Shown here: positions 592 to 29,238 of the stretch, one piece after another
How the letters are laid out: every line of letters starts with the position of its first letter
How positions within the stretch are numbered: position 1 is the first letter of the stretch
Assembly: GCA_050010755.1 (NCBI GenBank)
Contig: JBEKKK010000007.1
Coordinates: forward strand, 1-34,225
Reading direction: 5' to 3'
Length of the DNA stretch: 34,225 bases
Origin: Candidatus Bathyarchaeia archaeon
GTDB taxonomy: Archaea; Thermoproteota; Bathyarchaeia; Bathyarchaeales; Bathycorpusculaceae
Program-made: the position numbers and the translations under genes
The notes under the pieces: generated by a model
Told to the model about the DNA's origin: nothing
Databases searched by the model: none
The model's input: the letters and a program-made list of their open reading frames with translations, nothing else

Positions 592-1209
592 TCATTGTTT
601 TCTTGACAACAGCACGCGGTATCCGCTTTCCCTTGCGAGCACCTCAAAGTTTCCGAAAGCTTCCTCAAAAATCGTGCGCAATCTCTTGCCTCCAACCTTG
701 GATTTTACCACCATCTGGAAAACACCCCCGCAGGCCATGTGCTGCGGCGCTTCAATTATAATCGCTTTAACGGTCTCCATACCCGCACTCACTGGGGGGT
801 TTGATAGTATGCAATCGAAAATCATGTCTTTCACAGGCGAGTAAAGGCAACCGTTCCTGACCTCCGCATTATTGATCATGTTTTTCTCAACGTTTTGTTT
901 GGCAAGCCAAACTGCACGTCTGTTGACGTCAGTCAAAAACACGTATAAGCGCTGGTTAAGGGCTGCTGCCGCGATTCCAACGGCGCCGTAGCCGCAGCCG
1001 ATGTCCAAGGCGCAGCCCTTCTTTGGCAGTATCATGGATTCTATTAGTAGCCGAGTGCCCAGGTCAACCCGCTGTTTTGAGAACACGCCTGAAGCTGTTA
1101 GAAACTCGAAGGGTCTTCCACGCAGGTAAGTGCGTATCAGACCGTACCTTGGCTTCGATTTTGGATTCGCCGCAAAGTAGTGCTCAATGTTTTCGGCGCT
1201 TTTAGCCAT
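592..1209 (-). CDS. Class I SAM-dependent methyltransferase (RsmC/MJ0882-like)
   Basis: EHYF N-terminus, GVFS..VD.GTRLL, motif I LDIGCGYG, SNPP motif. ATG at 1209 overlaps the cbf5 stop. Confidence 0.9.
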   Translation of the reverse strand: MAKSAENIEHYFAANPKSKPRYGLIRTYLRGRPFEFLTASGVFSKQRVDLGTRLLIESMILPKKGCALDIGCGYGAVGIAAAALNQRLYVFLTDVNRRAVWLAKQNVEKNMINNAEVRNGCLYSPVKDMIFDCILSNPPVSAGMETVKAIIIEAPQHMACGGVFQMVVKSKVGGKRLRTIFEEAFGNFEVLARESGYRVLLSRKQ

Positions 1210-2233
1210 TCCTTTCTCTGCCGCTCCTCCAACGCTTGGGGTAGGTGCCCCTGGGCATGAGCACTCGCATCGTCTTGGCGACCACACCGTGTTCCATGTT
1301 CAGGCATTCATCTGAGTTGGTTAGAGCTTTTGCCAGTGCGACGGCCTCGCCTTTTAGGGACATGACGGCAACCATCGAGTCTCTTTGAATTCCCGTTTCG
1401 AGCGACAGAATTCCCGGAGCAGTGAGGCTTGCGCCGTGACAAACGGCGTCGACGGCGGAGTCTCTTATGCATATTTTCGGAACCAATCCCAGAGCGTGTT
1501 CCATCGGCTGGACGAACCGCTTCAACAGCTTTTCGTCCTTCTTTTCTTGCCACTCCATAAACCAGTACGCCATGTCGTGCAAGATTACGCTATCATCTTC
1601 GACGAAGGGCCCTGCCCTCGTTCTTCGCAGCTCTTGCATGTGAGCTCCGCATCCCAGAACCTCTCCCACGTCGAAACACAGTTTGCGAATATACGTGCCG
1701 CCCTCGCATCCAACCTTGAAAAGGACGTTGCGCCCCTCCATTTCAAGAAAATCCAGATAGTAAATGCGTCTCGTGCGCAACTGTCGCTTGACGGAAGACC
1801 GCAGTGGTGGGCGCTGATAGATCAAGTCTTCAAATTCGCCCAGAACCTTCTTAACACGTTCTGTCGCGACATCTGCGTGGAGCCTCATAACGCCTATGTA
1901 TTCTTTCCCGCTGTAAAGCAGTGCCTGAACGACTCTCGTACCTTCTTCAAGCGTGATTGGTAGAACGCCGGTCACCTTGGGATTTCTCTGGCCTTACCAG
2001 GCCTCTAGAGTCCCGCCGTGACCAACATGCTCAAGCTTGAGAATGCGTTTAACCCAAGCGGCCACCTCATGACTCGTTGGGCCAGAGGTCTTGTCCAAGT
2101 TGATTACACCGTATTTCAGGTAATCCACCGCTGATCTATCCTCAGGTTTGCATCCGAAGCTCGGGTCAGTCTTGTCCTCAGCCTTCACCAACAGCTTGCG
2201 TTCAGTCTGCCACGGAGCAGCAGTCCTCGGCAT
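1202..2233 (-). CDS. cbf5: H/ACA RNA-guided pseudouridine synthase Cbf5 (TruB family), two exons: 2233-2005 and 1983-1202
   Basis: Exon 1 has GVINLDK..GPTSHEV..GHGGTL. Exon 2 has PKVTGVLP, YQRPP, GTYIRKL, LRR and a PUA domain. Removing 21 nt restores catalytic GTLDPKVTG. Confidence 0.95.
1984..2004 (-). other. 21-nt bulge-helix-bulge pre-mRNA intron in cbf5
   Basis: mRNA reads GGGA CUCU AG|A GGCC UGGUAA GGCC AGAG AA|A UCCC: 4-bp central helix CUCU/AGAG, two 3-nt bulges and flanking stems. In-frame UAA in the loop. Confidence 0.93.
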
Positions 2234-2280: not shown

Positions 2281-2465
2281 TTAAACACCCAATCCTGCGT
2301 TTATACCCCAGAATCTCTTGGGTCGCCTGAACAGCATTATGCCATCTTTCTCAGTTATGTATTTGAATCCGACAGAAAGAGCTTGTTTCGCCTCTTCCAC
2401 CATAATAGCTGTGGTCACCTCGAACTCATCGTCTTCAAAGTGTATCATGCTAATGTAGCGCGCGC
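2281..2465 (-). pseudogene. C-terminal remnant of an archaeal tyrosine integrase
   Basis: Translates RYISMIHFEDDEFEVTTAIMVEEAKQALSVGFKYITEKDGIMLFRRPKRF*. This resembles, from memory, the catalytic Tyr plus C-terminal tail of Bathyarchaeia-type integrases. No upstream HxxR domain. Confidence 0.55.
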
Positions 2466-2567
2466 CTTTTTTAAACGAGTAACACTTCAGGGTTGCAGTT
2501 GATCCGATACGTTTGGCGCCAGTTTTTAACGCAAACTGAATTAATTTTGGAGTAGAGCCAGCGCGAG

Positions 2568-2732
2568 CAACATGGAAATTTACGCTTACACATTACAAAG
2601 CAACATTACAATAGACGTAAAGAAAAAAAAGGGAGGGGGCACAGCTCGCTCCTTTTTGCCAACATGGCCACATATGCGTTTCCATTATGTGACTCCATTA
2701 CATCTGATGTGTGTGAAAAAAGGGGAGGGGGG
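2568..2732 (+). repeat. Dispersed intergenic repeat, pair 1 (type A 2568-2640; type B 2660-2732)
   Basis: CAACATGG...ATTACA(A/T)nnGAYGT...AAAAA GGG. The type A unit is nearly identical to the reverse complement of 24664-24741. Confidence 0.9.
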
Positions 2733-2842
2733 CGAACACCGCGCAGGTTGCAGTCTTCTGAATCGCTCCGCAACAAGAGCCAAAACCAGAGAAAACCGCT
2801 GCAAAAAACAGCAGATAGAAATTGTGGAACGGACATATGCAA

Positions 2843-5140
2843 TTAGGTTGTCAGTTTGATTTGTCTCTGTCCTCTGACCTCGTCATAAACTGTTCTCACA
2901 GAATAGCCGAATGGGCTGAACATGTTGGCAGCCGAAGCGTAAAGAAGAAGCAGGTACTTCTTGACGTCCGAGTCCGTGTTCTTCTCTATCAACTCCTCCG
3001 CGACGACTCTTCTCTCGTACCGCTTGTTCTCGGCGCTGGTGAAGAGGAACCTCACGTTCTTGCCGCCCGCGATGTCAACTCCTTCTTTCAACAGCTGCTT
3101 GGCCGCTATGACCTGGCTCACCATCTGCCTATAGCTGCCAGGATCCTTGGACAAGTGCTTCGTGATTATCATGTCCCAGACTGGAATCTCTCCGGCAAGC
3201 AGCTTCTGTCTGTAATCTTTCAGAATCTTCAAGGCGTCAGGAATCTTTTCGAGGAACTGCCCCGAGTTTCTGGCCTCCGCCAGCACTTCCAGCATTCTTG
3301 TCTGAGCACTGCTTATGAACGGAGGCGTGTCTCTCCTCCGCACCTCTAAACCTCTAACTTTAATCTTGCCCGTCTCCATAGCCCCATAGTAACGGTTCAA
3401 CACTCCCACGTTCGGATGCAACCTAGAAGGAAGAAAAACAATCCACCTGTAGCGACCCTCGAAGTTCAGCGGAATATTCGTCTCCTCGCTTATCTCTCTG
3501 CACAGCCCTCGGTACTCTTCATTCGTGGCGTCTTTTTTCTTGAGCCAGAGAGAATCAACTATACCATGAATAATCCTGAAACCCCTCTCCTCGGCAATCC
3601 TGGAAGCCTTCAAGAAGGCCTCTCTTCCGAAAGCACAAACGCCTATGTGACCGTCAACAGTGCCAAACCGTGCATTCCTATAACCCAAGTACCCAAAACA
3701 CGTGACCAGAATCCATTTCAAAGCCGTCTGACGATTATCATAAACCTCTCTCAGCCTCTCATCCTTCGCCTCCAACATCAACCTCTTGTACTCGAGCCTT
3801 TTCTTGACAACGGGCTCCAAAGCCTTAGGAACAATGCCCCTCTTCTTCTCGCAGATGTTGTAGCCGAGCTCGGGAATACGGATCTTTGAGTCAGGACAAC
3901 ACTTGCACAACACGGTTTCGGCGGAGATGTTATTGTTAACCATCACCGTCGGATACATGGAAGAAAAGTCGACTTCGCCAACGTCATCGTGAACACCCAC
4001 CTCCGGCTCGTACACGAAGCCTCCCCGATCCCCGACAAGCAGCTCAAGAGCGGACTTGAAGGCTTCAGGAATGCTCTTGTTCCTAGGAATCAGAACGTCA
4101 TTCTTCATCGCTTGATAGAATTGAATAGACGACATGCTCGAACCTATCGACGAACGCGCCGCCGTGTGCAGCGAAACCCTACAAGTCCTCGCAATCTCAA
4201 ACAATCCATCCAACCCGCACTCGGCCAGAATAAAAGTGTTCCTCTCGTCAACATGAACCCTCCCGTACAACCGTCTCATCGGAGCCCTGTAAAAAGTGCG
4301 ACCATAAGAAAAGAAAGTTCTTCCGCGAACATTCCTAACAACAAGAGGCACATCATCCCTGCCCAAAACAAGCCTATCCACAACACCGCTGATAATCGCC
4401 CTGCGAACAAGATAGAAGAAGAGAAACGAATCGCCGCCCCTCGTAACAAGAATGTCAGGATCAAGCTCCTTAACAGTTTGCACGAGTTGAAGCAGCTTGT
4501 CTTTCTCATCGCCCGAATCGATGATCTCTTCCCTGCCTCCCTGGACAACCGTGACTTTGCTTATGGGATCACTCATCTTGGCAATCCTACCCTGTTTAGC
4601 GATTTCCACGCCTATCTTCGAGATTCTCAAAGGCGGAACCGCGTAGTCCAAACTGTCAGCACAATCGAGCAGAGTATACCTCAACTGGGCATCTTCAGAC
4701 TCTATCTCAACCATCGCAAGAGGAAAAACGTCACGATAAAAAAAGTACAGCTGGTCGTACTTCAAATCACAGTTGAAGACGTTATAACGCAAGAATCTTC
4801 CAAACTTCAAAACTCTCCGAGTGAACGACGGCGATCCCCTGCAATCCTTCAAGACCACTTCAAGAACCCGAGACTGTTCAGAGTCGGTTGCCTTCGCATA
4901 TCGCCGAACAAAATCCCACGACACAACCGCCTCATCGCAAGAAAACTGTGCACTAAGCCTCTCCAAACTGTCTTCTTTCCCAGAAATGTAGATTTTAGGC
5001 TCGAAACTGTCTGTTAACCGAAGACGGTTTCCGTTTTCAGTTATGATCCAGACAGCGAACTGTCCAAGCGCAGAAGGATACGCGTCGAGTATCCAACCCC
5101 TGACCCTGTCAGGGTTGTGAAAGCTTCTGCTTGATTGCAA
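2843..5140 (-). CDS. polB2: Family B DNA polymerase, PolB2 (Dpo2-like) clade
   Basis: Motif A DFSSMYP, motif B RQTALKWILVTCFGYLG, altered motif C HGIVDS, KVRGLEVRRRD and degenerate exonuclease motifs. Confidence 0.92.
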   Translation of the reverse strand: MQSSRSFHNPDRVRGWILDAYPSALGQFAVWIITENGNRLRLTDSFEPKIYISGKEDSLERLSAQFSCDEAVVSWDFVRRYAKATDSEQSRVLEVVLKDCRGSPSFTRRVLKFGRFLRYNVFNCDLKYDQLYFFYRDVFPLAMVEIESEDAQLRYTLLDCADSLDYAVPPLRISKIGVEIAKQGRIAKMSDPISKVTVVQGGREEIIDSGDEKDKLLQLVQTVKELDPDILVTRGGDSFLFFYLVRRAIISGVVDRLVLGRDDVPLVVRNVRGRTFFSYGRTFYRAPMRRLYGRVHVDERNTFILAECGLDGLFEIARTCRVSLHTAARSSIGSSMSSIQFYQAMKNDVLIPRNKSIPEAFKSALELLVGDRGGFVYEPEVGVHDDVGEVDFSSMYPTVMVNNNISAETVLCKCCPDSKIRIPELGYNICEKKRGIVPKALEPVVKKRLEYKRLMLEAKDERLREVYDNRQTALKWILVTCFGYLGYRNARFGTVDGHIGVCAFGREAFLKASRIAEERGFRIIHGIVDSLWLKKKDATNEEYRGLCREISEETNIPLNFEGRYRWIVFLPSRLHPNVGVLNRYYGAMETGKIKVRGLEVRRRDTPPFISSAQTRMLEVLAEARNSGQFLEKIPDALKILKDYRQKLLAGEIPVWDMIITKHLSKDPGSYRQMVSQVIAAKQLLKEGVDIAGGKNVRFLFTSAENKRYERRVVAEELIEKNTDSDVKKYLLLLYASAANMFSPFGYSVRTVYDEVRGQRQIKLTT

Positions 5141-6118: not shown

Positions 6119-6741
6119 TCACTTCCTCAAATCAACAGAGAGTTAAGACAGCGTTTCTATGAACTTTTAACGGTTAGCTCGAAAAGTAGAACGCCGACGG
6201 TGGAGAGTGGAGTTAAAGTGAAACGCTTGAGGTGCGCAGGCTAGTCAAATAATCTGGGAACGCGTGGTTTAAGATGCTGAGAAGATTACAGAAGAGAAGC
6301 GTTGAATTTGGGCACGGTTTTTGATGCGAGAAAAAAAGTTTTTCCAGAACAAGGCTGGACGGAGACTGCGTTTTGCGAACGAAGCTGCCAGCAGGCTCTG
6401 TTCAAACTCAAAACTCACTCATAACATCATGCAAACTCACTGCACAAGTGCCCATCTGCAGGAAGAATTCAGGACTAACCCGCCTAACGATGCGAAGACG
6501 CAGTAACGGCTTCGCTCCAACCCGCGCTCACAACCGCTAAAACCCCTCCAGACTCATCAACACGCGCACAGGAGCCGAGATGATTGCCGTCAACACCAAC
6601 AGACCACGTCAAACACTCCATGCCAATTCACTAGTTTCAAAACAAGCTCATGCAACACTTTCCCCAATTATTTAATCCACCCGCGCATGCTGAGAAAAAA
6701 CATTTTTACCTCGATTAGGTTACTTAGCGCACGTTGCATTC

Positions 6742-7026
6742 TCAGCCAAAAGAAGGTTTCACGGGTTGAGCCATCGCTTCCAGTTTGCCAGCCGACTTCA
6801 GCGCTTCCGTTACCTCTTCGTCGGAGGCTCCACGTTTGATGCCTATGCTATCTTGCAAGGGTTCGATGTGGTTAACGTTGGACCTGCGTCTCCTCACACC
6901 TGTCACTTCCTTCGGACCGGTGATTAACACGAAACTCTTGTCCGCCAAGTCGACTACAACACATTTCCTTCCTGCTTCACGGCCTGAAAGTTTCACGCAG
7001 ATTCTTCCAACCTCTATCGCGGACAC
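6742..7026 (-). CDS. rpl14e: 50S ribosomal protein L14e
   Basis: [25 protein letters not shown]...GP...TGVRRRR.N..HIEP. GTG start at 7026 with GGAGG upstream. Confidence 0.95.
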
Positions 7027-7071
7027 TCCGAAACCTCCCTGAAAAGACTGATAGAACAATCGTCTAAGAGA

Positions 7072-7080
7072 TATTTATAA
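7072..7080 (-). promoter_or_regulatory. TATA box of rpl14e (TTATAAATA), also the attL core
   Basis: Lies 46 bp upstream of the rpl14e start; duplicated at 15905-15913. Confidence 0.75.
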
Positions 7081-7180
7081 TATCGGGTCGTTTTTCCGAT
7101 ATTTCAAAATGGCTCATTTAAACCACAACAATCCTATAGGACAAATTAGCTTAAAAGGAATAGTGGAGGACTGTTCTATT

Positions 7181-7915
7181 CTACCACTTATTCACATAAT
7201 CGAAAGAATGTTCTGGAAAATCTTCGCTTTCACATTCTTGGTTCATCTTATGACAGAAATCAGTCATGTCCTTTACGAAGTCGTTGTATTTCTCTCTGAA
7301 CGCCTCAAAACTGGCTTCGATTCCTTTAGCTATCGGCTCTTTCGTAGATATCATTATCTCATGAGCGAAAACTTCGGTAATCCTCAAGTTTCTTTTGTGT
7401 ATTTCCCAGAACGATTCAAATCGCTTCATGATGAGAAAAAGGTCGCGGTAACTCTTGTCTGATTTGTCAATTTCCTTCTCGATATTGAACATAGTTTGGT
7501 CGATTTCTTGTTGATTTGAGTATTGTAATGAGAACAGTTCTAGTTGGCTCTTGATGTCGTTTGTGTAATGGTTTCTCAGACTATCCATAATTTCTCTTAT
7601 GCTGTAAGTGAATCTCCTAAAACTCTCGACCAAATCCTTGAAGTGAGTGGCGTTTTTTCGGGAAACTGAATCTCTCTTTCTTTCAAGTCTTGCACGTCTT
7701 ATTCTTTCACGGATAGTATGAGCAAAAATCATTATCGGTATGGAGAAAAAAAGGGCAATGAGAACAATCAAAGAAAAATAAAACCACCACAACGGAAGAT
7801 TTCCGCTATTACTGAGTAAACTCGTAACAGCTACGAGAATTGGGACCATAACTCCTATGACTACGGCAAACTCTGTTATTCTTGGACTTTTCTTTTCCTC
7901 TTTTTGTTCAAACAA
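7181..7915 (-). CDS. Hypothetical membrane protein (two N-terminal TM helices plus helical domain)
   Basis: 244-aa ORF with two hydrophobic segments; element cargo. Confidence 0.7.
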   Translation of the reverse strand: MFEQKEEKKSPRITEFAVVIGVMVPILVAVTSLLSNSGNLPLWWFYFSLIVLIALFFSIPIMIFAHTIRERIRRARLERKRDSVSRKNATHFKDLVESFRRFTYSIREIMDSLRNHYTNDIKSQLELFSLQYSNQQEIDQTMFNIEKEIDKSDKSYRDLFLIMKRFESFWEIHKRNLRITEVFAHEIMISTKEPIAKGIEASFEAFREKYNDFVKDMTDFCHKMNQECESEDFPEHSFDYVNKW

Positions 7916-8036
7916 TGTCCGTCATCAGCTATTCTCATCGGTTCACCTATAACTTTTCCGCAAAATCAGAAGTCTAGCCATGAAAGGACTGATAGAAGAA
8001 TCCTCTAGGTCTTTTCTTTCTAAATGAAAAATTCTT

Positions 8037-8546
8037 ATGCAAGCTATTACTATTCAAGTGAAGGGCAATCTCTTGGAAATATACGGTAAAGTGGGGTTAG
8101 ACAAAAATACAACTCTCCTTTGGATGTTTAGACATCGTAGTGCTGTCGGTGCTGATTTTGAAGTTAAAGCTGTTTTGCCTTACGCTAAATCAGACAAAAT
8201 AAGAAAACAAATTGGCATAGCCAAAATTTCGATAGATGGTCGGAAAAATGCGGTGTTACATGATATTCTTGTTAACTCTCCCTATCGGCGTAGAGGTGTC
8301 GGAAGCAAAATCTTGAAGTTTGTCGTCGATTACCTTCAAGACGGAGATGCTGAAATAATTAAAGGTGATACAAGAGGTATAGATGACCAACAGATAACGA
8401 TTAAATTCTTTTTGAGAAATGGTTTCACTATGGATGCAGAAAATTCGGAATTTAGTCTTATCCTGAACAAACCGACGTATTCGCAACTTGGCAATTTGTA
8501 TGAAGGAATTGAATACATAAAGGGAAACGAATATCGTACGTTTTGA
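8037..8546 (+). CDS. GNAT family N-acetyltransferase
   Basis: HDILVNSPYRRRGVGSKIL acetyl-CoA motif A; KFFLRNGF motif B. Confidence 0.8.
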   Translation: MQAITIQVKGNLLEIYGKVGLDKNTTLLWMFRHRSAVGADFEVKAVLPYAKSDKIRKQIGIAKISIDGRKNAVLHDILVNSPYRRRGVGSKILKFVVDYLQDGDAEIIKGDTRGIDDQQITIKFFLRNGFTMDAENSEFSLILNKPTYSQLGNLYEGIEYIKGNEYRTF

Positions 8547-8576
8547 CAAGAAAGAAAGAGAACTAGAGGGTCAAAA

Positions 8577-8708
8577 ATGAGTGAAAGGAAGACAACTTTC
8601 AAAAAATCAAGAGAAGGAAGACTTTGTCCAAAATGCAAAGACTATAACATGGATGAAGAAGGGTACTGTTCGTATTGCAGGGAGAAAACAGGAACAAGTG
8701 TAACCTAA
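8577..8708 (+). CDS. Micro zinc-finger protein (43 aa)
   Basis: MSERKTTFKKSREGRLCPKCKDYNMDEEGYCSYCREKTGTSVT*, with GAGGG upstream. Confidence 0.6.
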   Translation: MSERKTTFKKSREGRLCPKCKDYNMDEEGYCSYCREKTGTSVT

Positions 8709-8781
8709 TTTCTTCAAGTATTTTGGAAAAAATTGCCCATTAAAGAAAGAGCGGAATATCAGAAAAAGAGAAGTAACGAGG

Positions 8782-9426
8782 TTATCCATTTTTGTCTTCA
8801 AACTTCAGGGAACAGATTACAGCCCTAATGTCCTTTCTTTGAATAGTGTAGTCGTCTAAGGCTTTGCGAGTAGCCCAGAGAAATTGCGAGCAATTGCTCT
8901 CACCGAAATCGAAAGTCACAGGTCCATTGAAGGTCTGAACGACAAGACTGTTCTTGTATCCAAATGAACCGTAACTCTCAAATCGCGGTCCTTCAATTCC
9001 GACAACTTCACTCCAAAGAGCTTCCCAATATTGCCCGTAAAGTTCATACTTGATAAGTTTTTTGTCGGTTACGACAAAGTATTTATTTGCAAGCAAGCCC
9101 TTGAAGCGAAACGAGAAATAAATGAATTCATCTGGTTCTATTTTGTCGTCAATCTCTGATAGCTCATTCTTCAGACTTTCTTGTTGAAATCTCATTTTCC
9201 TTTGTATCTGTTTCAAATGCTCAACGTCTTTCGTTACGATTTCTCCACATGCTGTGCAAAACCATGAACCGTCAGCCATTTGGCCACCACATTTTGAGCA
9301 TATAATCCGCTTTCTAGACGAACCATCTTCAGTGAGGATAAGGTTAGCCCCACAATATTGGCATTTCATTGTTTCACGAGAAACCATCGCTCCGCAATTT
9401 GAGCATTTTATTGGTATAACTGTCAT
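8782..9426 (-). CDS. Double zinc-ribbon protein with a C-terminal PH-like domain
   Basis: Four CxxC pairs (CSNC, CQYC, CSKC, CTAC); YFVVTDKKLI...WSEV resembles bacterial PH domains. Confidence 0.7.
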   Translation of the reverse strand: MTVIPIKCSNCGAMVSRETMKCQYCGANLILTEDGSSRKRIICSKCGGQMADGSWFCTACGEIVTKDVEHLKQIQRKMRFQQESLKNELSEIDDKIEPDEFIYFSFRFKGLLANKYFVVTDKKLIKYELYGQYWEALWSEVVGIEGPRFESYGSFGYKNSLVVQTFNGPVTFDFGESNCSQFLWATRKALDDYTIQRKDIRAVICSLKFEDKNG

Positions 9427-9880
9427 AGAAATCCTCTGCTTTAGATGTAGAATACGAAAAAGCCTCTTAACAATTTCTGTTTTGAATAGTGCCAAATTCA
9501 AAAACGGTCATATCCATAAGAATAAGAGAGGGCTATCGAAGTATGTCCGAGATGGTCTAAAGAGGGTGGGGGACATTCATTAAGCTAGGTTTAGCATAAT
9601 AGACTTGAATTAGGCTCGTTTGGTATTGAAATAGCAACTATTACGATAACTGAAGCTAGACCTAGAGTTTTTGGCTAATGGTTGAAAATCAAACTCAAGA
9701 ATTTATATGGTAACTAGCTGAATAGAGCCTAAATTAGGCTTATTTGATAGATGGTTTTAGTTTCGATACGTGGTTCGTCGTGTCCTCATACAAATACCGA
9801 CGAAAATCTCCATCGAAGCAACAAATCACAGAAAGTTAAACTATGGGCTAAACTTCGCACTTGCTTCGTAAGATTTGAGT

Positions 9881-9971
9881 GATTTTTGAATTTATCCAGC
9901 TTGAAAAGTTGCTTGGGGCGACCCCTTGCAACGAAAGATAAATCACAAGCGATTTTTGGAATTTATCAGCT
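9881..9971. repeat. Two imperfect 21-bp direct repeats flanking a GC hairpin
   Basis: GATTTTTGAATTTATCCAGCT (9881) and GATTTTTGGAATTTATCAGCT (9951); GTTGC-TT-GGGG-CGA-CCCC-TT-GCAAC at 9908-9932. Confidence 0.7.
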
Positions 9972-10195
9972 AGGTCTGGCTCTAGGGGTAAATTGCTCTA
10001 GCTGTTGGCATGAAATCTTTGGCTTAACTGAGAGCGTGTGAGCGTGTTCAAGTTACCAGAATCAGCTAACACTTTTTGAAATGAATAGTCTACTGATGTT
10101 AAGCTAGTCTCATAACAGAGAGCATAGACCTGTTTTATAGATGCTATTTACCTGAAGGAACAGTCTCTCTATCAATTGCTAGAGCTAGCAGGAGT

Positions 10196-10276
10196 CTAAT
10201 ACTCTCTAATACTCTCTCTAATACTACTCATCTGAAATACTCTCCTCTAATGCTTTCTCTCTAGAATACATTCTCT
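10196..10276. repeat. Degenerate tandem repeats of CTAATACTCT (iteron-like)
   Basis: About 6 imperfect copies visible in the sequence. Confidence 0.7.
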
Positions 10277-10821
10277 TTGTTCAGATGTAGTTATGTATTG
10301 AAGTGTGTGTTTTGGGAGCCTTTAGAGAGAAAGATTTCGGACACTATGTTTCGCACTTTCGGGTTTGTCGATTTGGCTACTCGTGTTTCAGAGATGTCGG
10401 AGATTTCATTAGCTCGTAGATGACCTAAAAAACATGGCACAGTCGAGCTTCGAGACGACACATCGAGACCCATGTGACTCAGTTTATCAGTCCATAGTGT
10501 TTCTTGCCTAGCAAAAGGCGATAGGAGAGACAGAGTTTCAGCTAAGTTAGTGAGAGTCAAATAAGCCTTTAATGTGCTACTCATATCTGTCTCGCCTAGT
10601 GTTTCTGTTGTGTATTAAGACGCTAGACAGCTATAAATAAGTTTCTTTAACAGATTAATTTAGAGCCTAATTATTAATATCAGGCTAATATCCAGCATGG
10701 ACGTTGTCGCCGTAAGTTAATAGTTCTATTTAAGTCTTCTGGTTGAAAAGGCGAGACGGTCATTTTCGAGATAAGCCATAACTCATTCAAATGACCAAAC
10801 ATGAGCTTGGTTACTCATTAT

Positions 10822-10977
10822 TGAGTAGCTACTCATATTTAAATATTGCGGTTGGGCTTATCGGTCTTTAAGTAGTTGCTTAAAATCTTCCGTTACCTAT
10901 CTATATAGAAATCAGAAAAAAGTAAATACAATAAAAACTTTTATATAGTAGATGCTAGTTCTATATAGACTATATAG
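10822..10977 (+). promoter_or_regulatory. Promoter/operator region of the element's main operon
   Basis: Palindrome TGAGTAGCTACTCA (10822-10835); TATA TTTTATATAG (10939-10948); CTATATAG palindromes at 10901, 10961 and 10970. Confidence 0.55.
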
Positions 10978-10986
10978 GTGAAATGT

Positions 10987-11358
10987 ATGCCAACAGAAGG
11001 TTATCAAACCGTAACAATTACGCAAAAGAATTACGATGTATTAGAGTATCTTTCGATTAAATCTAAGGCTAGTCGGTCTCAAATTCTTAACGAGTTTCTA
11101 GAGCAAGTCGAAAAAGTTGTCTATCCGCTAGGTGATTGTGGTTCTCATATTAACTATCTGTTTCAAGCGGAAAATGGCGACATGATAATTTGTCGTTTTT
11201 CAGCTATGACTTTCAGTAAGCATTTTGACCACGCCGAGCTAGACAAAAACGGAGCTAATGAAATGTTAGACGATAAGCTAGAAAAATTGAGTTGCGACGA
11301 ATTGGCTAACAAACTCAGTAAGGCAAAAGCTGAAGCTAAAAAGAAGGAATCTAAATGA
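10987..11358 (+). CDS. Ribbon-helix-helix (CopG-like) DNA-binding protein
   Basis: YQTVTIT..NYDVLEYLS.....SRSQILNEFLE fits an RHH pattern; GGTGA SD before ATG 10987. Confidence 0.65.
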   Translation: MPTEGYQTVTITQKNYDVLEYLSIKSKASRSQILNEFLEQVEKVVYPLGDCGSHINYLFQAENGDMIICRFSAMTFSKHFDHAELDKNGANEMLDDKLEKLSCDELANKLSKAKAEAKKKESK

Positions 11359-12017
11359 GCAACGAAGAAAACTCAGAAGAAAATGAAAACCAAAAGAAAC
11401 CTGAGTCTCGCATTAAAATCGAGATTGAAAGAAGCAAGGAACTCGAAGGTTTAGCTTCTCGTAATATTGAGCTTGAGCGAGCTAATGCCGAGCTTGAACA
11501 AAAAGCTGGCGAACCTGATTATCAGAAAATTCTCGAAGAACAAGCTGTTCAAAAATTTACTGAAGAGTGCAACAAATACGGATTAGACCCGACAACAACA
11601 AAACCCGAAGTCTTGAAAGCTGTTAAGGAAATCAAACAAATCGAAGAAATGACTAGCCCTAAAGCTCCTAAAGGCGGTGAGACCGCTAATTTCTACGATT
11701 TAGGCAATTCGGGCAGAAAAGAGCCTATTAGCGGTGAAGCTCTGGATGCGATAAACGTGCATAGTGATACTGTTTCGGTTGACTTGTGTAAGTGGTCATC
11801 TGAATCTGCCATGGTCAAGGGTATTAAGGCTATAGCGTCCAACAGCGAAGACAGACGACAAAAAGAAGCAAAAAAATTGCTCTCTTTACTTGCGAAGAAA
11901 CTAATCAACGAGCCTAGCTCAGAGTTTGAGTATAACGGAAAACTCAGCGATTTACAGAAAGTGAATAAGAAGAATCGGAAAGGCGAATTTGTGAGGGCTG
12001 ATAAAAATGAGTCATGA
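11355..12017 (+). CDS. Hypothetical charged coiled-coil protein
   Basis: 220-aa ORF; ATGA-type overlap with neighbours. Confidence 0.7.
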   Translation: MSNEENSEENENQKKPESRIKIEIERSKELEGLASRNIELERANAELEQKAGEPDYQKILEEQAVQKFTEECNKYGLDPTTTKPEVLKAVKEIKQIEEMTSPKAPKGGETANFYDLGNSGRKEPISGEALDAINVHSDTVSVDLCKWSSESAMVKGIKAIASNSEDRRQKEAKKLLSLLAKKLINEPSSEFEYNGKLSDLQKVNKKNRKGEFVRADKNES

Positions 12018-12552
12018 AATAGAACGAAGATTTAAAGAGAGAGAAAGCAATTACAGCGAGCAAATTAAGTTCGATTTCAAAACCCGAGAGTTTTACATAG
12101 CTCGAACTTATCCACACAGCGAAGATGTTAAGCGTTTACCGTTGAGTCAATGGGGTTTAGAAAAGTCTGCCAAAACGAGCCTGATAATTTGCAGGCAGAT
12201 GGAAAGCGAAAGTTTCGAGCAACCCGTTTCAGTTGTTTTCTATCGAATAGACCTAGAATATTCGATAAAAGAAGATGCTCCGTATTGGTTTTTGGTCTCA
12301 GATACGAGCAAGAATCCCGATGACCATCTCGAAAGAGTTTGGCAAACTGTAAGTCTCAAGAACGTGGATAGCGGTCAAGGCATGGGCTGTCCTATTCCAA
12401 ACAGCTTATACAAACCCGAATATCCGTTTCTCAAAATCACAAAATCTAAAGCTGTCAAAATTTCGAGTGAAGAACTAGAAGAGTTATGTCATAGCGGTAA
12501 AGTTCTCGGAATTTTCAACATGGATTTGACAAACCGAATAACTTCCTCATAG
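12007..12552 (+). CDS. Hypothetical protein
   Basis: 181-aa ORF overlapping the upstream gene within the operon. Confidence 0.65.
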   Translation: MSHEIERRFKERESNYSEQIKFDFKTREFYIARTYPHSEDVKRLPLSQWGLEKSAKTSLIICRQMESESFEQPVSVVFYRIDLEYSIKEDAPYWFLVSDTSKNPDDHLERVWQTVSLKNVDSGQGMGCPIPNSLYKPEYPFLKITKSKAVKISSEELEELCHSGKVLGIFNMDLTNRITSS

Positions 12553-12560
12553 GTGATACA

Positions 12561-13070
12561 ATGCCGAAATGGAATAGAACGAGAGAAGACGAAAACCATC
12601 TCAAAAGGAGAATTCAGTTAGTTAGGCAAGGGTTTAATCATGACCAAATAGACCAGCAATTCAGTAATGAGAAAGAAGAAAATCTAACACTTGCCCAAGT
12701 GAGAGAAAAAGAGAGACAATTAGAATTAGGTTTTGAAGAGCTAGAAAATCAAAAGAAACTCTTCGAGACTTATGTTCAAGAAACTTCATTGACTCTAGAT
12801 AACTTAGAAGCTCAAATCAAAACCAAAAAACAAATCATTGACGAAACTAATCTTAATGTTTCTCTGAGAAAGCTCAACTTTTTTATGAAAGAAGCTCAAA
12901 AGGATTTTGAAGATTCGACACTCGTTTGTTTTCTTTATCTCGAAAATGGGAAATGGGTAACTAAATATTTTCCGATTAAGGAGAATCAACAAACCGTAAT
13001 TCTCGAATGTTGCGACAAGCTGAGAATACAGGCTCTTGAGGAACAAGAAAAGAAGAAAGGAGATTCCTAG
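12561..13070 (+). CDS. Hypothetical coiled-coil protein
   Basis: 169 aa, GGTGA SD, heptad-rich centre. Confidence 0.65.
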   Translation: MPKWNRTREDENHLKRRIQLVRQGFNHDQIDQQFSNEKEENLTLAQVREKERQLELGFEELENQKKLFETYVQETSLTLDNLEAQIKTKKQIIDETNLNVSLRKLNFFMKEAQKDFEDSTLVCFLYLENGKWVTKYFPIKENQQTVILECCDKLRIQALEEQEKKKGDS

Positions 13071-13072
13071 TC

Positions 13073-13444
13073 ATGGCTGGAAGCATGGCTGTTCGAATGT
13101 CGTGTATTTTTTCTTGTGCAGTTTTTACTAAAGATTCTGCACGAGATGACCACTTCCACGACATTCAGCAATCACATCACCAAACCCAAAAAACCCACAA
13201 AAAGGATAGGTGTCTCGATTTGGCAACAGTCGAGAGGGTTTCGACATTCCCTAACACACGCCTATCCTTCAAAATAAAAGGCGATATAGGATTCAGAATT
13301 GAGCAAATTTATCAATGTCGTGTTTTGACGTTAAACGGTCTGTTTGAAACTTATCATAACGAAGAGAACGCTAGAAAATATTTGTCGAAAAAATATCTGA
13401 AGAAACATCAACGGAAGAAACACGAACCCTTCATTTTCAGGTGA
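13073..13444 (+). CDS. Hypothetical protein, possible C2H2-like finger
   Basis: CIFSC..F........HFHD...H; abuts the flanking ORFs. Confidence 0.5.
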   Translation: MAGSMAVRMSCIFSCAVFTKDSARDDHFHDIQQSHHQTQKTHKKDRCLDLATVERVSTFPNTRLSFKIKGDIGFRIEQIYQCRVLTLNGLFETYHNEENARKYLSKKYLKKHQRKKHEPFIFR

Positions 13445-13659
13445 TAATTACGGGTCATAAGCCAATCCAAAAACGATTTTGTCTTTATTGTGGTGAAGAA
13501 ATTCTGAGAAATTCATATGAAAGTACAGGAGAATGGAGAAGAAAATCGTTTTGTAATGATTATTGCTGTTTTAGGTTTCACATTCTACCTTACTCGGATA
13601 TTCGGAAAAGTGGAGAAACCACACCCGAGCAACGAAAGGAGATGTTAAAGAATGACTGA
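13441..13659 (+). CDS. Small zinc-finger protein (TRASH/MYM-like)
   Basis: CLYCG...FCNDYC; GTGA overlap with the upstream ORF. Confidence 0.65.
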   Translation: MIITGHKPIQKRFCLYCGEEILRNSYESTGEWRRKSFCNDYCCFRFHILPYSDIRKSGETTPEQRKEMLKND

Positions 13660-13789
13660 GAAAGAACTATGTGACTTATGCGGTAAGCGTACTGCCGTTC
13701 TAAAGTGCATGATTTGTAATAAGAATTTCTGTCTTCGTTGCATGGAGTCTCATAGAGAAACGTGCTTAATCGGTTGGGATTGGACATGA
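13652..13789 (+). CDS. B-box-like micro zinc-finger protein (45 aa)
   Basis: MTEKELCDLCGKRTAVLKCMICNKNFCLRCMESHRETCLIGWDWT*; AGGAG upstream. Confidence 0.7.
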   Translation: MTEKELCDLCGKRTAVLKCMICNKNFCLRCMESHRETCLIGWDWT

Positions 13790-13890
13790 AGCTAACTTAC
13801 TGTTCCAACTGTAAGAAGCGAACTAAAACGCTTCAATCTGGTCTATGTTCTGAATGTTTCCATCTAAAAACAGAATTGACAATCGAATAA
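13786..13890 (+). CDS. Micro zinc-finger protein (34 aa)
   Basis: MKLTYCSNCKKRTKTLQSGLCSECFHLKTELTIE*; ATGA overlap. Confidence 0.65.
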   Translation: MKLTYCSNCKKRTKTLQSGLCSECFHLKTELTIE

Positions 13891-13900
13891 GGTGTCAAAA

Positions 13901-14155
13901 ATGTGTCCTAGGGCTAGTTATTATCGCAAAAATAAGGAAAAACTATTAGATAATCAGAGAAAAAAGCGAAGACTCACTCACACTTGCATGACTTTTAGGC
14001 TCATGATGTCGGGAAGAGTGAAAAGAGATAGTATCTGGTGTGACGAGCATCTTAGAAACTGTGAAGAGTGTCAAACATGGTATCACAATTTTAAGAAAGA
14101 AGAAAAACCTGAAGTTTTTGAAGGTGGTAATTTTTGGCACGAGACCACACAGTAA
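13901..14155 (+). CDS. Small protein with an HxxxCxxC (zf-HC2-like) motif
   Basis: HLRNCEECQ; AGGTG SD before ATG 13901. Confidence 0.6.
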   Translation: MCPRASYYRKNKEKLLDNQRKKRRLTHTCMTFRLMMSGRVKRDSIWCDEHLRNCEECQTWYHNFKKEEKPEVFEGGNFWHETTQ

Positions 14156-14383
14156 TTTTAGAAGAGACTGAGGAAGAGAAGAAACGAAAGAAAAGACAAA
14201 CTGATCTAGATAAGATTTTTTATGATACTATGACGATTGAATCGGATAATCAAGCATCACAAAAAAATCAAGGTCAATAGCTAGGATAAAAACTCGATGA
14301 CCATCGCTTAAAAAGCATGAGAGAGCATCCTATTTTCAGAAATTTTAACCAATTAGTGACTAGACAAAAAAAGAAAGGAAAAG

Positions 14384-14497
14384 TTAGCCTAATTGGTGAC
14401 TTTCTATGTGGCTTAATCTTGCGTTTGTCGTGTCTAGTTTTTCATTAATCAGCTTTAGCAACTTGATTATTTCGTTAAGTTGTTGCTCGGCAGTCAT
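14384..14497 (-). CDS. Small coiled-coil protein (37 aa)
   Basis: GGTGA SD, then MTAEQQLNEIIKLLKLINEKLDTTNARLSHIESHQLG*. Confidence 0.5.
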   Translation of the reverse strand: MTAEQQLNEIIKLLKLINEKLDTTNARLSHIESHQLG

Positions 14498-14663
14498 GCT
14501 AATCACCTGCATTTCTTTATCTGGGTATGTGTGAAAATGACCTTCTCTTTTTGGATAGGCTTGAAACATTCCATTTCAGGATATTTTCCGTCAATGCGTT
14601 TAGCAGGAAATTCACAAGTCTGAGATTTATCGCAGTTAGAACAAATCTTCCTAACCATGTCAA

Positions 14664-15854
14664 TCACCTGAAAACGAAAGGCTCTTTCATGCCTAGTTGT
14701 TTCTTGATTAGTTCGAGTTTCTTCTCTAGGTCTAGTTTCAGGTTAGCTATTTCTTGCATGGTGCTAGCGTTTTGACTCTTTTGAAGCTCTTCAACCCGCT
14801 TTAGTGCTTGTTCAAGCCTTGTTTGTGTGGCTAGCCTATCGCTTTCCGCTTGTGCAAGAGCATTTTCTAAAGATTCAATTCTAACCGCTTGTTCAACCTT
14901 GGCTTTTCCAGAAACGTCACCATTAAGAGCAAAATCCTTGTAACACTCTCTAAAAATGCGTTCACATTCACTATCTAAACTCGTCTTGTAAGTTATGTTT
15001 GAAGCACTCGTTTTTTTCGATGTGATGACTTTAGCAACGGTTTCGTCTTTCTTGCTCAGAGTATCGTAAAGGAATTTTCTGAGTGTGTGAAAATGCACTT
15101 GCTTACCATAGGTTTCGATTTGGCTTTTCTTCAAAAGTGCTTTTAGCCAATCGTTAAGGTTATCGTTATCCGCCTTATTCCAGAGAGTCTTTGGCAAGTC
15201 TCCTTTCTTTCTGAGCGTTTCGAGATAATCCGCTAGGTTACTTAGGGCTTCAGGGGTCAAGAATGAACGTGGTTGAACGCTTGTTTTTTGCCGAGTTTTT
15301 CCTATGAATGCCATAAAATCCAAGTGTTCATTTTTTGCTTGTCTTACTAGCTGGCTAATTCTTTCTGTCTCTAGGTTTAGGAAGTCTTGACTCGAATAGC
15401 CTAGAGAAACAGCTACAGAGAGCCATGTCTTTTCAAAAGGCGAACCGTAATAGTAGCATTTTCTCAGGATTTCCTGATTGAAGATGAATTCGTTTTCTGG
15501 AATTTGGATAGGGTCGAATCCTTTGGTTACGCCTGAGATTCTTTCGCAATTTTGGGAATAGAAAGCTAGAATTGAAGTTGTTTGGGTTCGGCAATAGTTG
15601 ATTTTGAAATTACGCTCTTCTTTCAGATAGTTATAGAATTTCAAAAGCGTGTTTCTCGCTTCCCTTCTCCAATCTGAAAGCGTGTCAAACGATTTTCTTG
15701 CTTCGACATAATCCGCTCTAAGCTGTTCGGGAGTCTTTCCTATCCATTTACAAAAGTAACCCAAGTATCGTATGTTCAGCTTTCGAGTATAGGCTCTCCC
15801 TGTCGTGAAATACTTAGCCATAGCTTCACTAAGTTCTCGTTGACTTCTCTCCAT
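14664..15854 (-). CDS. Tyrosine recombinase/integrase with atypical active-site residues and a C-terminal coiled coil
   Basis: SAM-like N-domain (FCKWIGKTPEQL), RQKT, HTLRK (HxxR) and distal Tyr in NITY. True start probably ATG 15854 (AAGGGAG SD); the longer ORF crosses attR into host DNA. Confidence 0.85.
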   Translation of the reverse strand: MERSQRELSEAMAKYFTTGRAYTRKLNIRYLGYFCKWIGKTPEQLRADYVEARKSFDTLSDWRREARNTLLKFYNYLKEERNFKINYCRTQTTSILAFYSQNCERISGVTKGFDPIQIPENEFIFNQEILRKCYYYGSPFEKTWLSVAVSLGYSSQDFLNLETERISQLVRQAKNEHLDFMAFIGKTRQKTSVQPRSFLTPEALSNLADYLETLRKKGDLPKTLWNKADNDNLNDWLKALLKKSQIETYGKQVHFHTLRKFLYDTLSKKDETVAKVITSKKTSASNITYKTSLDSECERIFRECYKDFALNGDVSGKAKVEQAVRIESLENALAQAESDRLATQTRLEQALKRVEELQKSQNASTMQEIANLKLDLEKKLELIKKQLGMKEPFVFR

Positions 15855-15880
15855 TTCTCCCTTATGAATCGATAGTTCAT

Positions 15881-15913
15881 ATTTTCGGGGTTTTGACCCG
15901 ATATTATTTATAA
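15881..15913. other. attR: recombinase binding arms plus TATTTATAA core
   Basis: ATTTTCGG-N9-CCGATATT mirrors the left end AATATCGG-N9-CCGATATT (7079-7103); core duplicated. Confidence 0.8.
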
Positions 15914-16067
15914 CTTCACTTGCGAGAACAGTCAGCATGGCTGCTCCGAACCCGACGTAGCCGGCCGCATTCAGGGTTGTGAGAGAAAACTCATCCAAGC
16001 GTCGGTGTTTGAAGTGAATGTTTGGCAGAACTCTTATTCTAGGGAGACGCCAAGATTGTTGTAGAGG

Positions 16068-16619
16068 ATGCTTCGGTTGGTCGCCCAGGAAAGGCAAGTT
16101 TTGCCTCGGTCGCAGGAGAGCCTGGCAAAAACGGTCGGGGTCATCTCTGACACGCATGTTCCTGACCGTGCGAGAAGAATCCCTGAAAAGGTCTTCAAGG
16201 TTTTTGAGAACGTAGATTTCATCGTTCACGCTGGCGACCTGGTGGAGTTCTCCATTGTTGACGAGTTAGAGAGACTTGCCCCAGTCCTTGTTGTGTGCGG
16301 AAACATGGACGGACCCGATGTCAGGGGCAAGCTGCCGAGGATCGATTCATTGAAAGTTTTTGATTGGAGGATAGGAGTGACGCATAACCCTAGAGCACAT
16401 CTGGGGACTGGAAGAATGCGTGAAATCGCAGGAGAGAACGGCTTTAACGTGCTGATATACGGTCACACGCACAGTTCCAACATAAAATGGGAAAGAAACA
16501 TTCTTTTCATAAACCCTGGAAGCCCAACAAACCCGTCTCCGCCATTCTTGGCTAAACCCTCCGTGGCCCTGCTGAGAGTGACAAAAGAGAAAATAATCCC
16601 CCAAATCATCCACATCTGA
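16068..16619 (+). CDS. Metallophosphoesterase (YfcE/MJ0936/Vps29 family)
   Basis: SDTH, HAGD, GNMD, GHTH and NPGS motifs. Confidence 0.92.
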   Translation: MLRLVAQERQVLPRSQESLAKTVGVISDTHVPDRARRIPEKVFKVFENVDFIVHAGDLVEFSIVDELERLAPVLVVCGNMDGPDVRGKLPRIDSLKVFDWRIGVTHNPRAHLGTGRMREIAGENGFNVLIYGHTHSSNIKWERNILFINPGSPTNPSPPFLAKPSVALLRVTKEKIIPQIIHI

Positions 16620-20696: not shown

Positions 20697-20819
20697 ACAT
20701 CCGGCTTTAGTTTTCGACATTGTTTCCGTTTTCGCCTGGATCGTAACAGAGAAATATAATATCACAGAACTGCTCTGTATTTCGAAATTCTCGAACGCTT
20801 ATCAATTTGGAGAGGCGGG

Positions 20820-21230: not shown

Positions 21231-21374
21231 GTTTTCAGTAACCTGAGCATAAATGCATTACGACAGTGCTGTTAAGCCTTTTGTGCTACCCGGAACGTTA
21301 TGATGTCATTTATCGCGGGTCAAAAGTGCAAATCTCGCAGGAATTTTGAGCTTGTTAATTTGATTGTGTCGGGT

Positions 21375-24249: not shown

Positions 24250-24474
24250 GTTCGCATGGCCTCAGAAACATTACTGTTCATGGCGCAGGAATATAAGGGT
24301 GTAACATGAAAGTGGGAGGCTATTCTTTCTGATTTGATTTGACTACGAGGGGAGTTTCGTGGGCGTGGCATCGTTAACGTTAGTTATGAGATTCTCTGGG
24401 ATTACGAGTTTGCCTTCGCCAGCCATGATGCGTGGCCCATTGATCAGAGGCTGCGGCTTGCACGTCGACGGTGC

Positions 24475-24741
24475 CACTCCCTCTTTTTCACACACATCAG
24501 ATGTAATGGATCCGCGTAAAGGATCCACGTGTGTGTCCATGTCGGGCGGTGACGCGTGTTTCCGAAAATGACAGAAAATGTTGTTTACATGATTCTAGTG
24601 TCTGTCTTCCCTCTCTGTGTCTGGGTTTGACATGCCGCCGGAGTGGACGATTTCAAATGTTGACTGTGTCCCCCTCCCCTTTTTTTCTTTACGTCTGTTG
24701 TAATGTTGCTTTGTAATGTGTAAGCGTAAATTTCCATGTTG
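24475..24741 (-). repeat. Dispersed intergenic repeat, pair 2 (type A 24664-24741; type B 24475-24544)
   Basis: Reverse complement matches 2568-2645 with about 2 mismatches and 1 indel. The type B unit shares TCCATTACATCTGATGTGTGTGAAAAA with 2694-2720. Confidence 0.9.
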
Positions 24742-28792: not shown

Positions 28793-29051
28793 TTCATCCT
28801 TCCTTATGTAGCTGAATGAGTCGAAAGAGTGAATTAATATGTCTTGTGAATCTATCGTAAGAATTAATAAGCCTTGCTCCTTCTGAACGGACAGGGAACG
28901 GGAGTCGAGTCAAGTTACAGAGAGAACGGCGCGCGTGCCTGTTGACTCAGCCTTAAGTGTGCATTATTTTGTTTAGGCTTTAGTCTGTTTTAAGCCCCGG
29001 TTTGTGCTTGCCCCGCATTAAGAATAAGAAGGGCAGGATTCGCCTCTTCGA

Positions 29052-29202
29052 CCCCCGCCTTTTTTTCTTTACATCAGATGTAATGTTGCTTTGTAATGTG
29101 TAAGCGTATATGTGTCCATGTTGAATTTTGACCCCCGTCTGTGCGTTCGTGAGGTTAGTTGTAATGTTGCTTTGTAATGTTGCTTTGTATATTTTCATGT
29201 TG
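29052..29202 (-). repeat. Dispersed intergenic repeat, pair 3 (29052-29123; 29155-29202)
   Basis: ACGCTTACACATTACAAAGCAACATTACA is identical to type A. 13-bp periodic TGTAATGTTGCTT and a perfect dyad TTACATC-A-GATGTAA. Confidence 0.88.
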
Positions 29203-29238
29203 TTGTGGGGCGTGCGAGTTTCGCGTGCGCGGAGGGTG

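Follow-up and report, generated by a model that had tools for sequence, protein, structure and literature searches.

We wanted to investigate what kind of sequence lies in three intergenic places of one contig of a Candidatus Bathyarchaeia archaeon, where units of about 70 bp stand next to each other. The window is this entire contig (C7, 34,225 nt). It belongs to a genome (G000) of 2.19 Mb in 8 contigs, with 47.7% GC and 93% completeness. The neighbouring genes in the window are archaeal (Cbf5, a family-B polymerase, an archaeosortase-like protein). For one protein of the window the closest named relatives were from Bathyarchaeia MAGs, and DNA of the window occurs in peat and wetland metagenomes.

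The initial annotation had described six related units in three intergenic pairs, and we found all of them at their places in the window. It had described them over 27 kb of the window and had named the absence of further copies as a result that would refute its reading. We performed an iterated nhmmer search over the whole genome, seeded with one unit, and detected 79 copies, 66 of them near full length. They form 48 intergenic clusters (24 single, 17 double, 7 triple), so the units are real but their scope is genome-wide. Similarly, the units of a tandem "pair" are indeed adjacent, but what had been called pairs are same-strand arrays in which the spacers belong to a homologous linker family. 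The same orientation of units was observed in all 24 multi-unit clusters, with at most 3 units per array. The median pairwise identity among units was 74%. Copies identical over up to 73 nt were found on four contigs, and the two-unit block at locus 2 was 94% identical to C3:126040-126315, the flanks of these two loci being unrelated. The gene context of the unit loci was assessed with crude longest-ORF calls. According to these calls, the gene upstream of the units was co-oriented with them at 35 of the 48 loci (binomial p = 0.002) and intervals between divergent genes held just 5 of the 48. Bunching of the arrays into islands was rejected (neighbour-gap P = 0.20, 0.17 and 0.056 for 5, 10 and 20 kb, respectively). 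Metagenome contigs from four DNA runs, aligned to 20000-34225, broke at the arrays, and the joints listed had sides of 18-41 nt. These joints derive from other repeat copies and are therefore uninformative on mobility. As a lead only, since a gap in contig coverage proves nothing, contigs of run X5 covered 20000-29082 at a depth of ~190 and nothing past the 29.1 kb array; in 29500-34225 the relatives showed scattered non-syntenic matches alone.

Alignment of the units confirmed the anatomy claimed for them earlier, namely a CAACATGG head, TTAC repeats, a dyad, an A-tract and a G-tract. The head is followed by three 13-nt sub-repeats, AAAG, A7-9 and GGGGAGGGG. Each sub-repeat starts with ATTAC (..ATTAC..GCAAC), and the third one is the dyad TTACRT-CTG-AYGTAA. 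The most conserved stretch of the family, (GC)AACATTAC, adjoins this dyad. The word AACATTAC was present 6 times in the window, compared with 0.95 expected, and 0 of 100 shuffles reached 6. The units fall into subtypes A, B, C and D (Table 1), and hybrid units exist, in which the 5' part of one subtype is joined to the 3' part of another. The lengths of the A-run and the G-run vary among units. The array spacers (95-129 nt) form one homologous linker family, as judged from the alignment of 23 linkers; they are non-coding, with no ORF. Linkers begin with CACCGTTCA..GAAATC and end with an AT-rich box and TTTTCGGAACAC..GCACG. At many loci the last unit is followed by a semi-conserved tail, of which approximately the first 40 nt are recognizable as such; a single-seed nhmmer search for the tail module matched itself alone. 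We consider the units best explained as a lineage-specific, multi-copy, non-coding modular repeat family, composed of modules D, A, B and C together with a linker and a tail.

Table 1. Coordinates and sequence features of the repeat units, of the window loci and of the integrase-associated junctions. Positions without a contig name refer to the window.
Feature	Position	Strand	Remarks
Subtype A			TTTACGC...GACGTAAAG
Subtype B			ACACACRTGGATCC...GATGTGTGTG; outer stem ACACA..GTGTGTG
Subtype C			CTTACAT...GATGTAAAG
Subtype D			divergent, ends ..ACATTACAACTAACCTCACAAACGCAGAGCCGGGGGG
Leader module, locus 1	2458..2567	+	starts GCGCGCGCC, exactly where homology to genus mates ends
Unit type A, locus 1	2568..2638	+	nhmmer, model 1-71, 61.5 bits; TTTACGC...GACGTAAAG, A8, GGGAGGGG
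Att-core word in locus-1 type A unit	2602-2609		AACATTAC
Short linker (21 nt), locus 1	2639..2659	+	gap between successive nhmmer matches
Unit type B, locus 1	2660..2730	+	nhmmer, model 1-71, 53.8 bits; ACACA..GTGTGTG outer stem
Tail module, locus 1	2731..2848	+	ends at stop codon of converging PolB gene (2843)
Unit type A, locus 2	24671..24741	-	copies identical over 62-73 nt on C1, C2, C3
Linker (126 nt, L3 subtype), locus 2	24545..24670	-	homologous to linkers of other arrays
Unit type B, locus 2	24474..24544	-	nhmmer
Unit D-type, locus 3	about 29129..29204	-	..ACATTACAACTAACCTCACGAACGCACAGACGGGGG; form conserved across genus
Hybrid unit, locus 3	29051..29123	-	5' part B-like/A-like, 3' part C-type
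D-prime / hairpin / D module	C1:127990-128150, 195983-196118, 1290690-1290830, 1376218-1376385; C3:16295-16395		
Paralogous ~370-aa genes	C1:204308-205420; both ends of contig C2		
Units without 3' part	C1:196125; C8:11844; C4:1798		run into unrelated DNA
Metagenome locus L030			~10.4 kb element; both junctions in units, shared core AATTACAGAT
Metagenome locus L028			~9.2 kb element; unit split inside dyad, core ATCTGATG, integrase at other end
Metagenome locus L029			integrase-side junction laid out as in G000 elements

A "D-prime / hairpin / D" module was also seen on C1 and C3. Its hairpin is of GNRA type (GCC-GTAA-GGC, in one copy GCC-GCAA-GGC) and is followed by AAGCCTGTTTT. The module is 70-81% identical to copies in two sister species (G001 and G002) and is the best structured-RNA candidate of the family.

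Further, we compared the three window loci with one another. The type A units of loci 1 and 2 had been noted as nearly identical, and 2568-2639 was 97% complementary to the inverted 24670-24741 over 72 nt. The distance of the pairs from the 3' ends of genes, given before as 35-110 bp, was 112, 90 and 36 nt by the crude ORF calls. The shortest one is that of the hybrid unit, which begins 36 nt past the stop of an M14-peptidase/dockerin gene. The pairs are not uniform, the distal unit of the third pair (29146-29202 within 29129..29204) being of the divergent D-type. Over 44-49 nt, this D-type unit shares 85-90% identity with the G001 and G002 copies.

An integrase remnant had also been proposed beside the repeats, at 2281-2457. 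We obtained no Pfam or NCBIfam support for it, and the sequence is conserved at unit-free cbf5 loci of relatives. Since the ORF is conserved beside cbf5 in the five relatives compared at this locus, and no unit was found there within ~1.2 kb, it is not linked to the repeats. This short ORF (minus strand; MIHFEDDEFEV...LFRRPKRF) shows 78-86% DNA identity in the relatives. In one of them, G004, its counterpart extends upstream into ..LLRHKRVENTMKY, which we presume to be similar to the catalytic-tyrosine end of a recombinase. The cbf5 gene itself (1202-2233, minus strand) is present as two ORFs, one with the DKCLD domain (1994-2233) and one with TruB and PUA (1202-1975). They are ~20 nt apart and apparently in different frames. 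In all five relatives, too, each part gives a match of its own. Possible causes are a frameshift, a small intron or a split that has been conserved.

The lead to a function came from truncated units. Units without the 5' part were found 70-100 nt upstream of, and divergent from, three paralogous genes of ~370 aa (Table 1). Identity is 97% between the two C2 copies of this gene and 72% between these and the C1 copy. Other units had lost the 3' part; they lay ~9.3 kb from those that retain it, or at contig ends that match. Contig C8 encodes at its end the last 24 residues of the ~370-aa integrase. Taken together, the paired truncated units and the integrase genes point to three insertions of ~9.3 kb, each splitting one unit. 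The junctions of the C1 element were compared with an intact unit of 72 nt (C2:8413). The first 40 nt of this unit are found in attL and its last 40 nt in attR, with an 8-nt overlap, TACAACAT. The shared cores of the other two elements are TGCAACATTA and ATGCAACATTAC. Each of the three elements splits a unit at a core of 8-12 nt, and both junctions were seen in all three. Beside the core, the element ends form an inverted repeat (TAAACCGACA / TGTCGGTTTA). A fourth integrase paralogue, 35% identical, is located on C3 and abuts a partial D unit. Integrase elements occupy 3-4 of the 48 unit loci in the genome, and at least 44 are free.

The C1 element was missing from five relatives, in all of which its right flank is syntenic backbone. 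Their DNA matches restart 100 nt past the right junction, and their left and right flanks are not adjacent. We saw no excised circle or empty site for the ~9.3 kb elements and therefore infer their activity from junction anatomy alone. The split-unit junctions of several independent elements show by sequence that units are chromosomal attachment sites (attB) of tyrosine-integrase elements, and recombination would take place within the 8-12-nt core. Of the candidate roles named in the initial annotation, that of recombination sites was borne out in this form.

The C1 element (G000:C1:196165-205484) encodes a homologue of HK97 gp10 / tail-completion protein (PHROG 5, E = 1e-12). The rest consists mostly of unassignable ORFs, with weak PHROG matches for two others. 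Between this element and its two paralogues, similarity is limited to the integrase and to ~70 nt at the left end. The C1 element may be a satellite or a remnant, as its size is insufficient for a tailed virus.

Recognition of the integrase at the sequence level was weak (Pfam Phage_integrase, E = 9e-4; NCBIfam XerA, E = 7e-4), and its profile gave 0 matches at E ≤ 1 against PDB by sequence. We obtained an AF2 model with 33 homologues (pLDDT 87) and used it in Foldseek. It matched XerA, the integron integrase (IntI), lambda Int, Cre and XerH with E down to 1e-8. There were 46 matches at E ≤ 1e-3, and among the matches listed (36) all were tyrosine recombinases. The predicted structure suggests that the end gene of the elements folds as a tyrosine recombinase. 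The integrase family carried on these integrative elements of ~9-10 kb is best explained as a group of Bathyarchaeia-specific tyrosine recombinases. A search of viral contigs found no relative of it.

We then looked at metagenome loci carrying relatives of the integrase. Units stood beside the integrase in 6 of 80 such loci, and the other 74 were without units. Three of the six represent the same organism; the remaining three are other contigs, with integrases 58-62% identical. Both junctions were visible in two of these three foreign contigs (L030 and L028, Table 1). No recognisable unit was adjacent to the integrase homologues of three relatives (G001, G004, G021), and an exact-pattern scan of genome contigs gave 0 records outside the own genome.

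The window also contains a low-GC island of ~8.8 kb (7081-15904; 37-38% GC versus 47% for the genome), the flanks of which (6732-7080 and from 15905 on) adjoin each other in G002 and G003. A 521-aa ORF of the island (14664-16229, minus strand) is 26-28% identical to the unit-targeting integrases. The idea that units flank this island was rejected, as there are no flanking units; the island represents an integrated element of its own.

The attB role needs just 8-12 nt and the dyad, and most loci are free of elements, so it cannot be the whole story. It leaves the A-run, the G-run, the 13-nt sub-repeats, the linkers and the tail without explanation. We think it most likely that the family is a self-homogenising, position-labile intergenic repeat, analogous to BIME or BOX mosaics, which was exploited secondarily as attB. 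The repeats would pre-date the integrase elements, and the elements would exploit them as other integrases do tRNA genes, presumably because the family offers many conserved dyad-bearing copies in harmless intergenic positions. The units may also have a role in transcription. In reverse orientation, their C-rich tract and T7-9 run were found within 80 nt of the stop codon for 15 of 24 converging genes. Archaeal transcription terminates at oligo-T, and this tract, as read from the letters, could act as an oligo-T terminator for the converging genes. That the whole is a modular repeat family in which core and dyad serve as attB of ~9-10 kb tyrosine-recombinase elements seems to us reasonably probable.

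The distribution among relatives was assessed with a 45-nt core. All 4 genus mates compared had a related core, as did 1 of 20 additional genomes from the same family. In genomes from other families of the order it was found in 0 of 16, apart from a marginal match in G040 (E = 0.003) to the linker part of the query. At the locus-1 site, upstream of cbf5, five relatives had no unit, and G004 had none at the site orthologous to locus 2. The homology of four or five relatives ends at window position 2457 or earlier (2350-2397). It stops 110 nt before locus 1 and restarts in G003 at 2849, 6 nt past the tail. Within the genome the copies are kept similar, and between species their positions are not conserved.

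[quoted passage not shown] In G003 a stretch at another locus, directly followed by cas1 and cas2, shares 79% identity with the module; other relatives have just 66%-identical paralogues. It may be a mobile replication module. Movement of this module via the units was rejected, as no units flank the G003 copy.

A rival to be taken seriously, although we consider it rather unlikely, is that the units are a multi-copy family of small-RNA genes and that the integrases target them for the reason that leads others to tRNA, tmRNA or 4.5S RNA genes. Each unit would be transcribed with the help of an AT-rich box, which lies at about -30 in the linker before it, or else on the opposite strand, and discrete RNAs would start at CAACAUGG or on that opposite strand. 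Structured RNA genes are common integrase targets according to the available parts of PMC8371274 and PMC12540744. By eye, every linker ends in an AT-rich box and TTTTCGGAAC, 20-33 nt before the unit, as this proposal would have it. Compensatory changes in the outer stem speak for it as well. Within each subtype, the 5' sub-repeat can pair with the 3' arm of the dyad. In the resulting 5'/3' stem of 66 units, 66.5% of the cells were paired versus 59.9% in shuffles, and there were 52 double-change cells versus 17.7 in shuffles (0 of 500 shuffles reached the observed value), with the caveat that a control slid by +2 was also high and that hybrids break the stem. The covariation may reflect only three founder subtypes. 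A local hairpin of 6 bp was paired in 87.9% of the cells and showed almost no covariation. The folds of four representative units differed between the strands. On the forward strand they were like shuffles (z = -0.17, -1.38, -0.09, -1.22), whereas on the reverse strand they were more stable than shuffles (z = -2.66, -2.21, -3.31, -2.63), which would suit an RNA. The locus-2 type B unit had a forward RNA fold of -20 kcal/mol (z = -1.38, versus -2.21 on the reverse strand). RNA genes are also favoured by the conservation of the D-type unit, which shows 92-96% identity between species over 45-53 nt, compared with 71-89% for the neighbouring orthologous DNA.

Several results argue against them. 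RNAalifold gave no consensus structure for the units on either strand, or for the linkers. Rfam gave 0 matches at the gathering score in the window and 0 at E ≤ 1 in three array loci. The inner stems are out of register between subtypes, the two homopolymer runs differ in length from unit to unit, and the positions of the units are not shared by the species.

The following alternative turns the relation between repeats and integrase around, and we find it distinctly unlikely. According to it, the units are attL/attR scars and the unit-linker blocks are extremely reduced, non-autonomous elements that the integrase left behind or moved in trans, similar to the accretion of CIMEs beside ICEs. Direct repetition of att-bearing units in all arrays is what it would predict. 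Hybrid units that join 5' and 3' parts of different subtypes fit it too, and so does the recurrence of one nearly identical two-unit block between unrelated flanks. The junctions themselves do not agree with it. Element ends share with the units only the 8-12-nt core, and the linkers are unlike element ends. Integration of a circle via the core should place the 3' part first, then the linker and then the 5' part, which is a permuted unit. Single copies instead consist of a linker, a whole unit and a tail. The subtype switch in B/C hybrids is at the second ATTAC and not at the element core. Moreover, the arrays lack a common primary attB, as only 1 of 48 has a tRNA gene within 300 nt. For the same reason scars at tRNA genes were rejected; the tRNAs were those called by ARAGORN (22, intron-bearing genes possibly being missed). 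We give an equally low chance to a joint system in which repeats and integrase elements propagate themselves, the recombinase acting in trans to reshuffle unit-linker blocks and copy them, as miniature non-autonomous integrative elements, into new intergenic places. If true, mobile elements would seed and maintain their own landing pads, which would be a recombinase-driven counterpart of MITEs undescribed in archaea.

A match to a MITE had been named earlier as a result that would refute the interpretation. Such a match exists for the D-type unit in the two sister species, but not in this genome. In the sister species the D-type unit is contained in an element of 340-346 nt, with at least 4 copies in G001 and at least 9 in G002. 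The element has terminal inverted repeats of 35-40 nt that match an IS of the present genome (C2:77965-79085; 1.12 kb, 27-nt terminal inverted repeats, a 348-aa DDE_Tnp_1/DUF772 transposase). As its terminal repeats are those of a DDE_Tnp_1/DUF772 IS, the D-type unit is cargo of an IS5-type MITE in G001 and G002. A ~70-nt remnant of the IS at G000:C2:55462-55532 consists of the two ends only.

From this one could propose that the arrays, like the elements of the sister species, are MITEs which a DDE transposase mobilises in trans, and the terminal repeats shared between the G001/G002 element and the G000 IS would support it. We regard it as very improbable. In agreement with the initial annotation, no convincing terminal inverted repeats were seen around the three window loci or the C3 array. 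Profiles of the 5' and 3' MITE flanks matched IS ends in G000 and never array flanks (E ≤ 0.1). The D-unit-bearing MITE was not found in G003, G004 or G021.

The motif GCGCGCG/CGCGCGC is the outermost part of the IS5-type terminal repeats (GCGCGCTGGCTTGTCCC). It forms 406 merged sites in the genome, 256 of them outside crude ORF calls, the genome being ~14% intergenic. Examples in the window are 2458-2466 and 28927-28935, and the motif is present at several homology breakpoints. It was near 12 of 48 arrays compared with 5.8 expected at random, because of its general intergenic bias.

Finally, an array of binding sites for a host DNA-binding protein, suggested by ATTAC..GCAAC three times at a 13-nt period followed by dyad, A-run and G-run, a layout of dyad, A-rich spacer and G-string which would resemble that of archaeal origin-recognition boxes (ORB), is barely credible, since the sequence is unlike the ORB consensus, 79 dispersed copies are not origins and the dyad is lost in some variants of the sister species.

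Some of the other identities considered at the outset can be judged from the arrays themselves. The exclusion of a CRISPR array holds, as the 71-nt units are divergent, the spacers are homologous to one another and no array exceeds three units. Cassette sites had been proposed too; the short arrays and non-coding linkers do not suit them, and housekeeping genes lie between the C2 arrays, aRF1, RFC, SHMT and endonuclease V among them. Arrays as boundaries of mobile cassettes were rejected, 25 of the 30 ORFs between the C2 arrays having housekeeping or metabolic Pfam matches.

We prefer the reading of a modular intergenic repeat exploited as attB, and we compared it with what is described for other systems. 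In the available part of PMC8371274, tRNA genes are the main targets of archaeal tyrosine recombinases, and single intergenic or coding sites are exceptions. The terms "repeated sequence" and "MITE" are absent from that part, and intergenic attB appear there as single-copy cases alone. A survey of Bathyarchaeia viruses (PMC10541130) mentions integrases, and attachment sites are not mentioned in its accessible part. Within the accessible parts of the literature we found no archaeal integrases that target dispersed repeats; supplementary att-site tables may exist.

An integrase clade that targets a repeat of 79 copies has dozens of equivalent, harmless insertion sites per genome. Repeat targeting explains assembly breaks and synteny breakpoints in abundant peat Bathyarchaeia. 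It also provides a defined pair of recombinase and target, an 8-12-nt core beside a dyad, of which natural variants use two crossover points, and the repeat family is a marker for mobile-element traffic in uncultured archaea.

In streptococci, CIME/ICE accretion leaves tandem att sites with non-autonomous DNA between them and the integrase acting in trans. Here the "elements" would be ~115 nt long, and the junction geometry expected of site-specific insertion was not seen. As in integrons with their attC, hairpin-forming sites of tyrosine recombinases stand in direct repeat. Unlike in integrons, no intI-attI platform adjoins the arrays, there are at most 3 units and no ORF is present in the 95-129-nt linkers; where a unit stands beside an integrase, it is the junction of a 9 kb element and not an array head. 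The D-type unit of G001 and G002, in a 340-nt element with terminal repeats of a DDE IS, is like IS5-derived MITEs; the G000 arrays are without such ends, and in G001 and G002 the unit is cargo, not terminus. BOX of Streptococcus pneumoniae has the form boxA-boxB(n)-boxC and about 100 copies per genome. Like the present family, it is a modular non-coding repeat in which internal modules vary in number between a head and a tail that are more constant. The two families are unrelated in sequence and belong to different domains of life, and BOX is not known as an integrase target.

REP/BIME elements are targeted by the insertion sequences IS1397, ISKpn1 and IS621. They resemble our family in being many short hairpin-forming intergenic repeats, mosaics with linker types, mostly placed after genes and used as landing pads, and to this extent the earlier label "REP-like" holds as an analogy. 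The label goes too far in other respects. The present units of 71 nt have internal 13-nt direct repeats, they are arranged on the same strand instead of alternating, and no Y1/RAYT transposase was found (PF01797: 0 in this 93%-complete genome, with a control detecting it in 6 of 14 known genomes). Instead of an IS transposase, the exploiting enzyme here is a tyrosine recombinase, encoded on a 9 kb element. In the case of tRNA-gene attB, the target is a gene and not a 79-copy intergenic repeat, and the element described here rebuilds no whole functional target beyond the core. In both cases, the integrase gene is at one end of a 9-10 kb element with a short identical core, and the sequence targeted is conserved, bears a dyad and belongs to a family with many copies.
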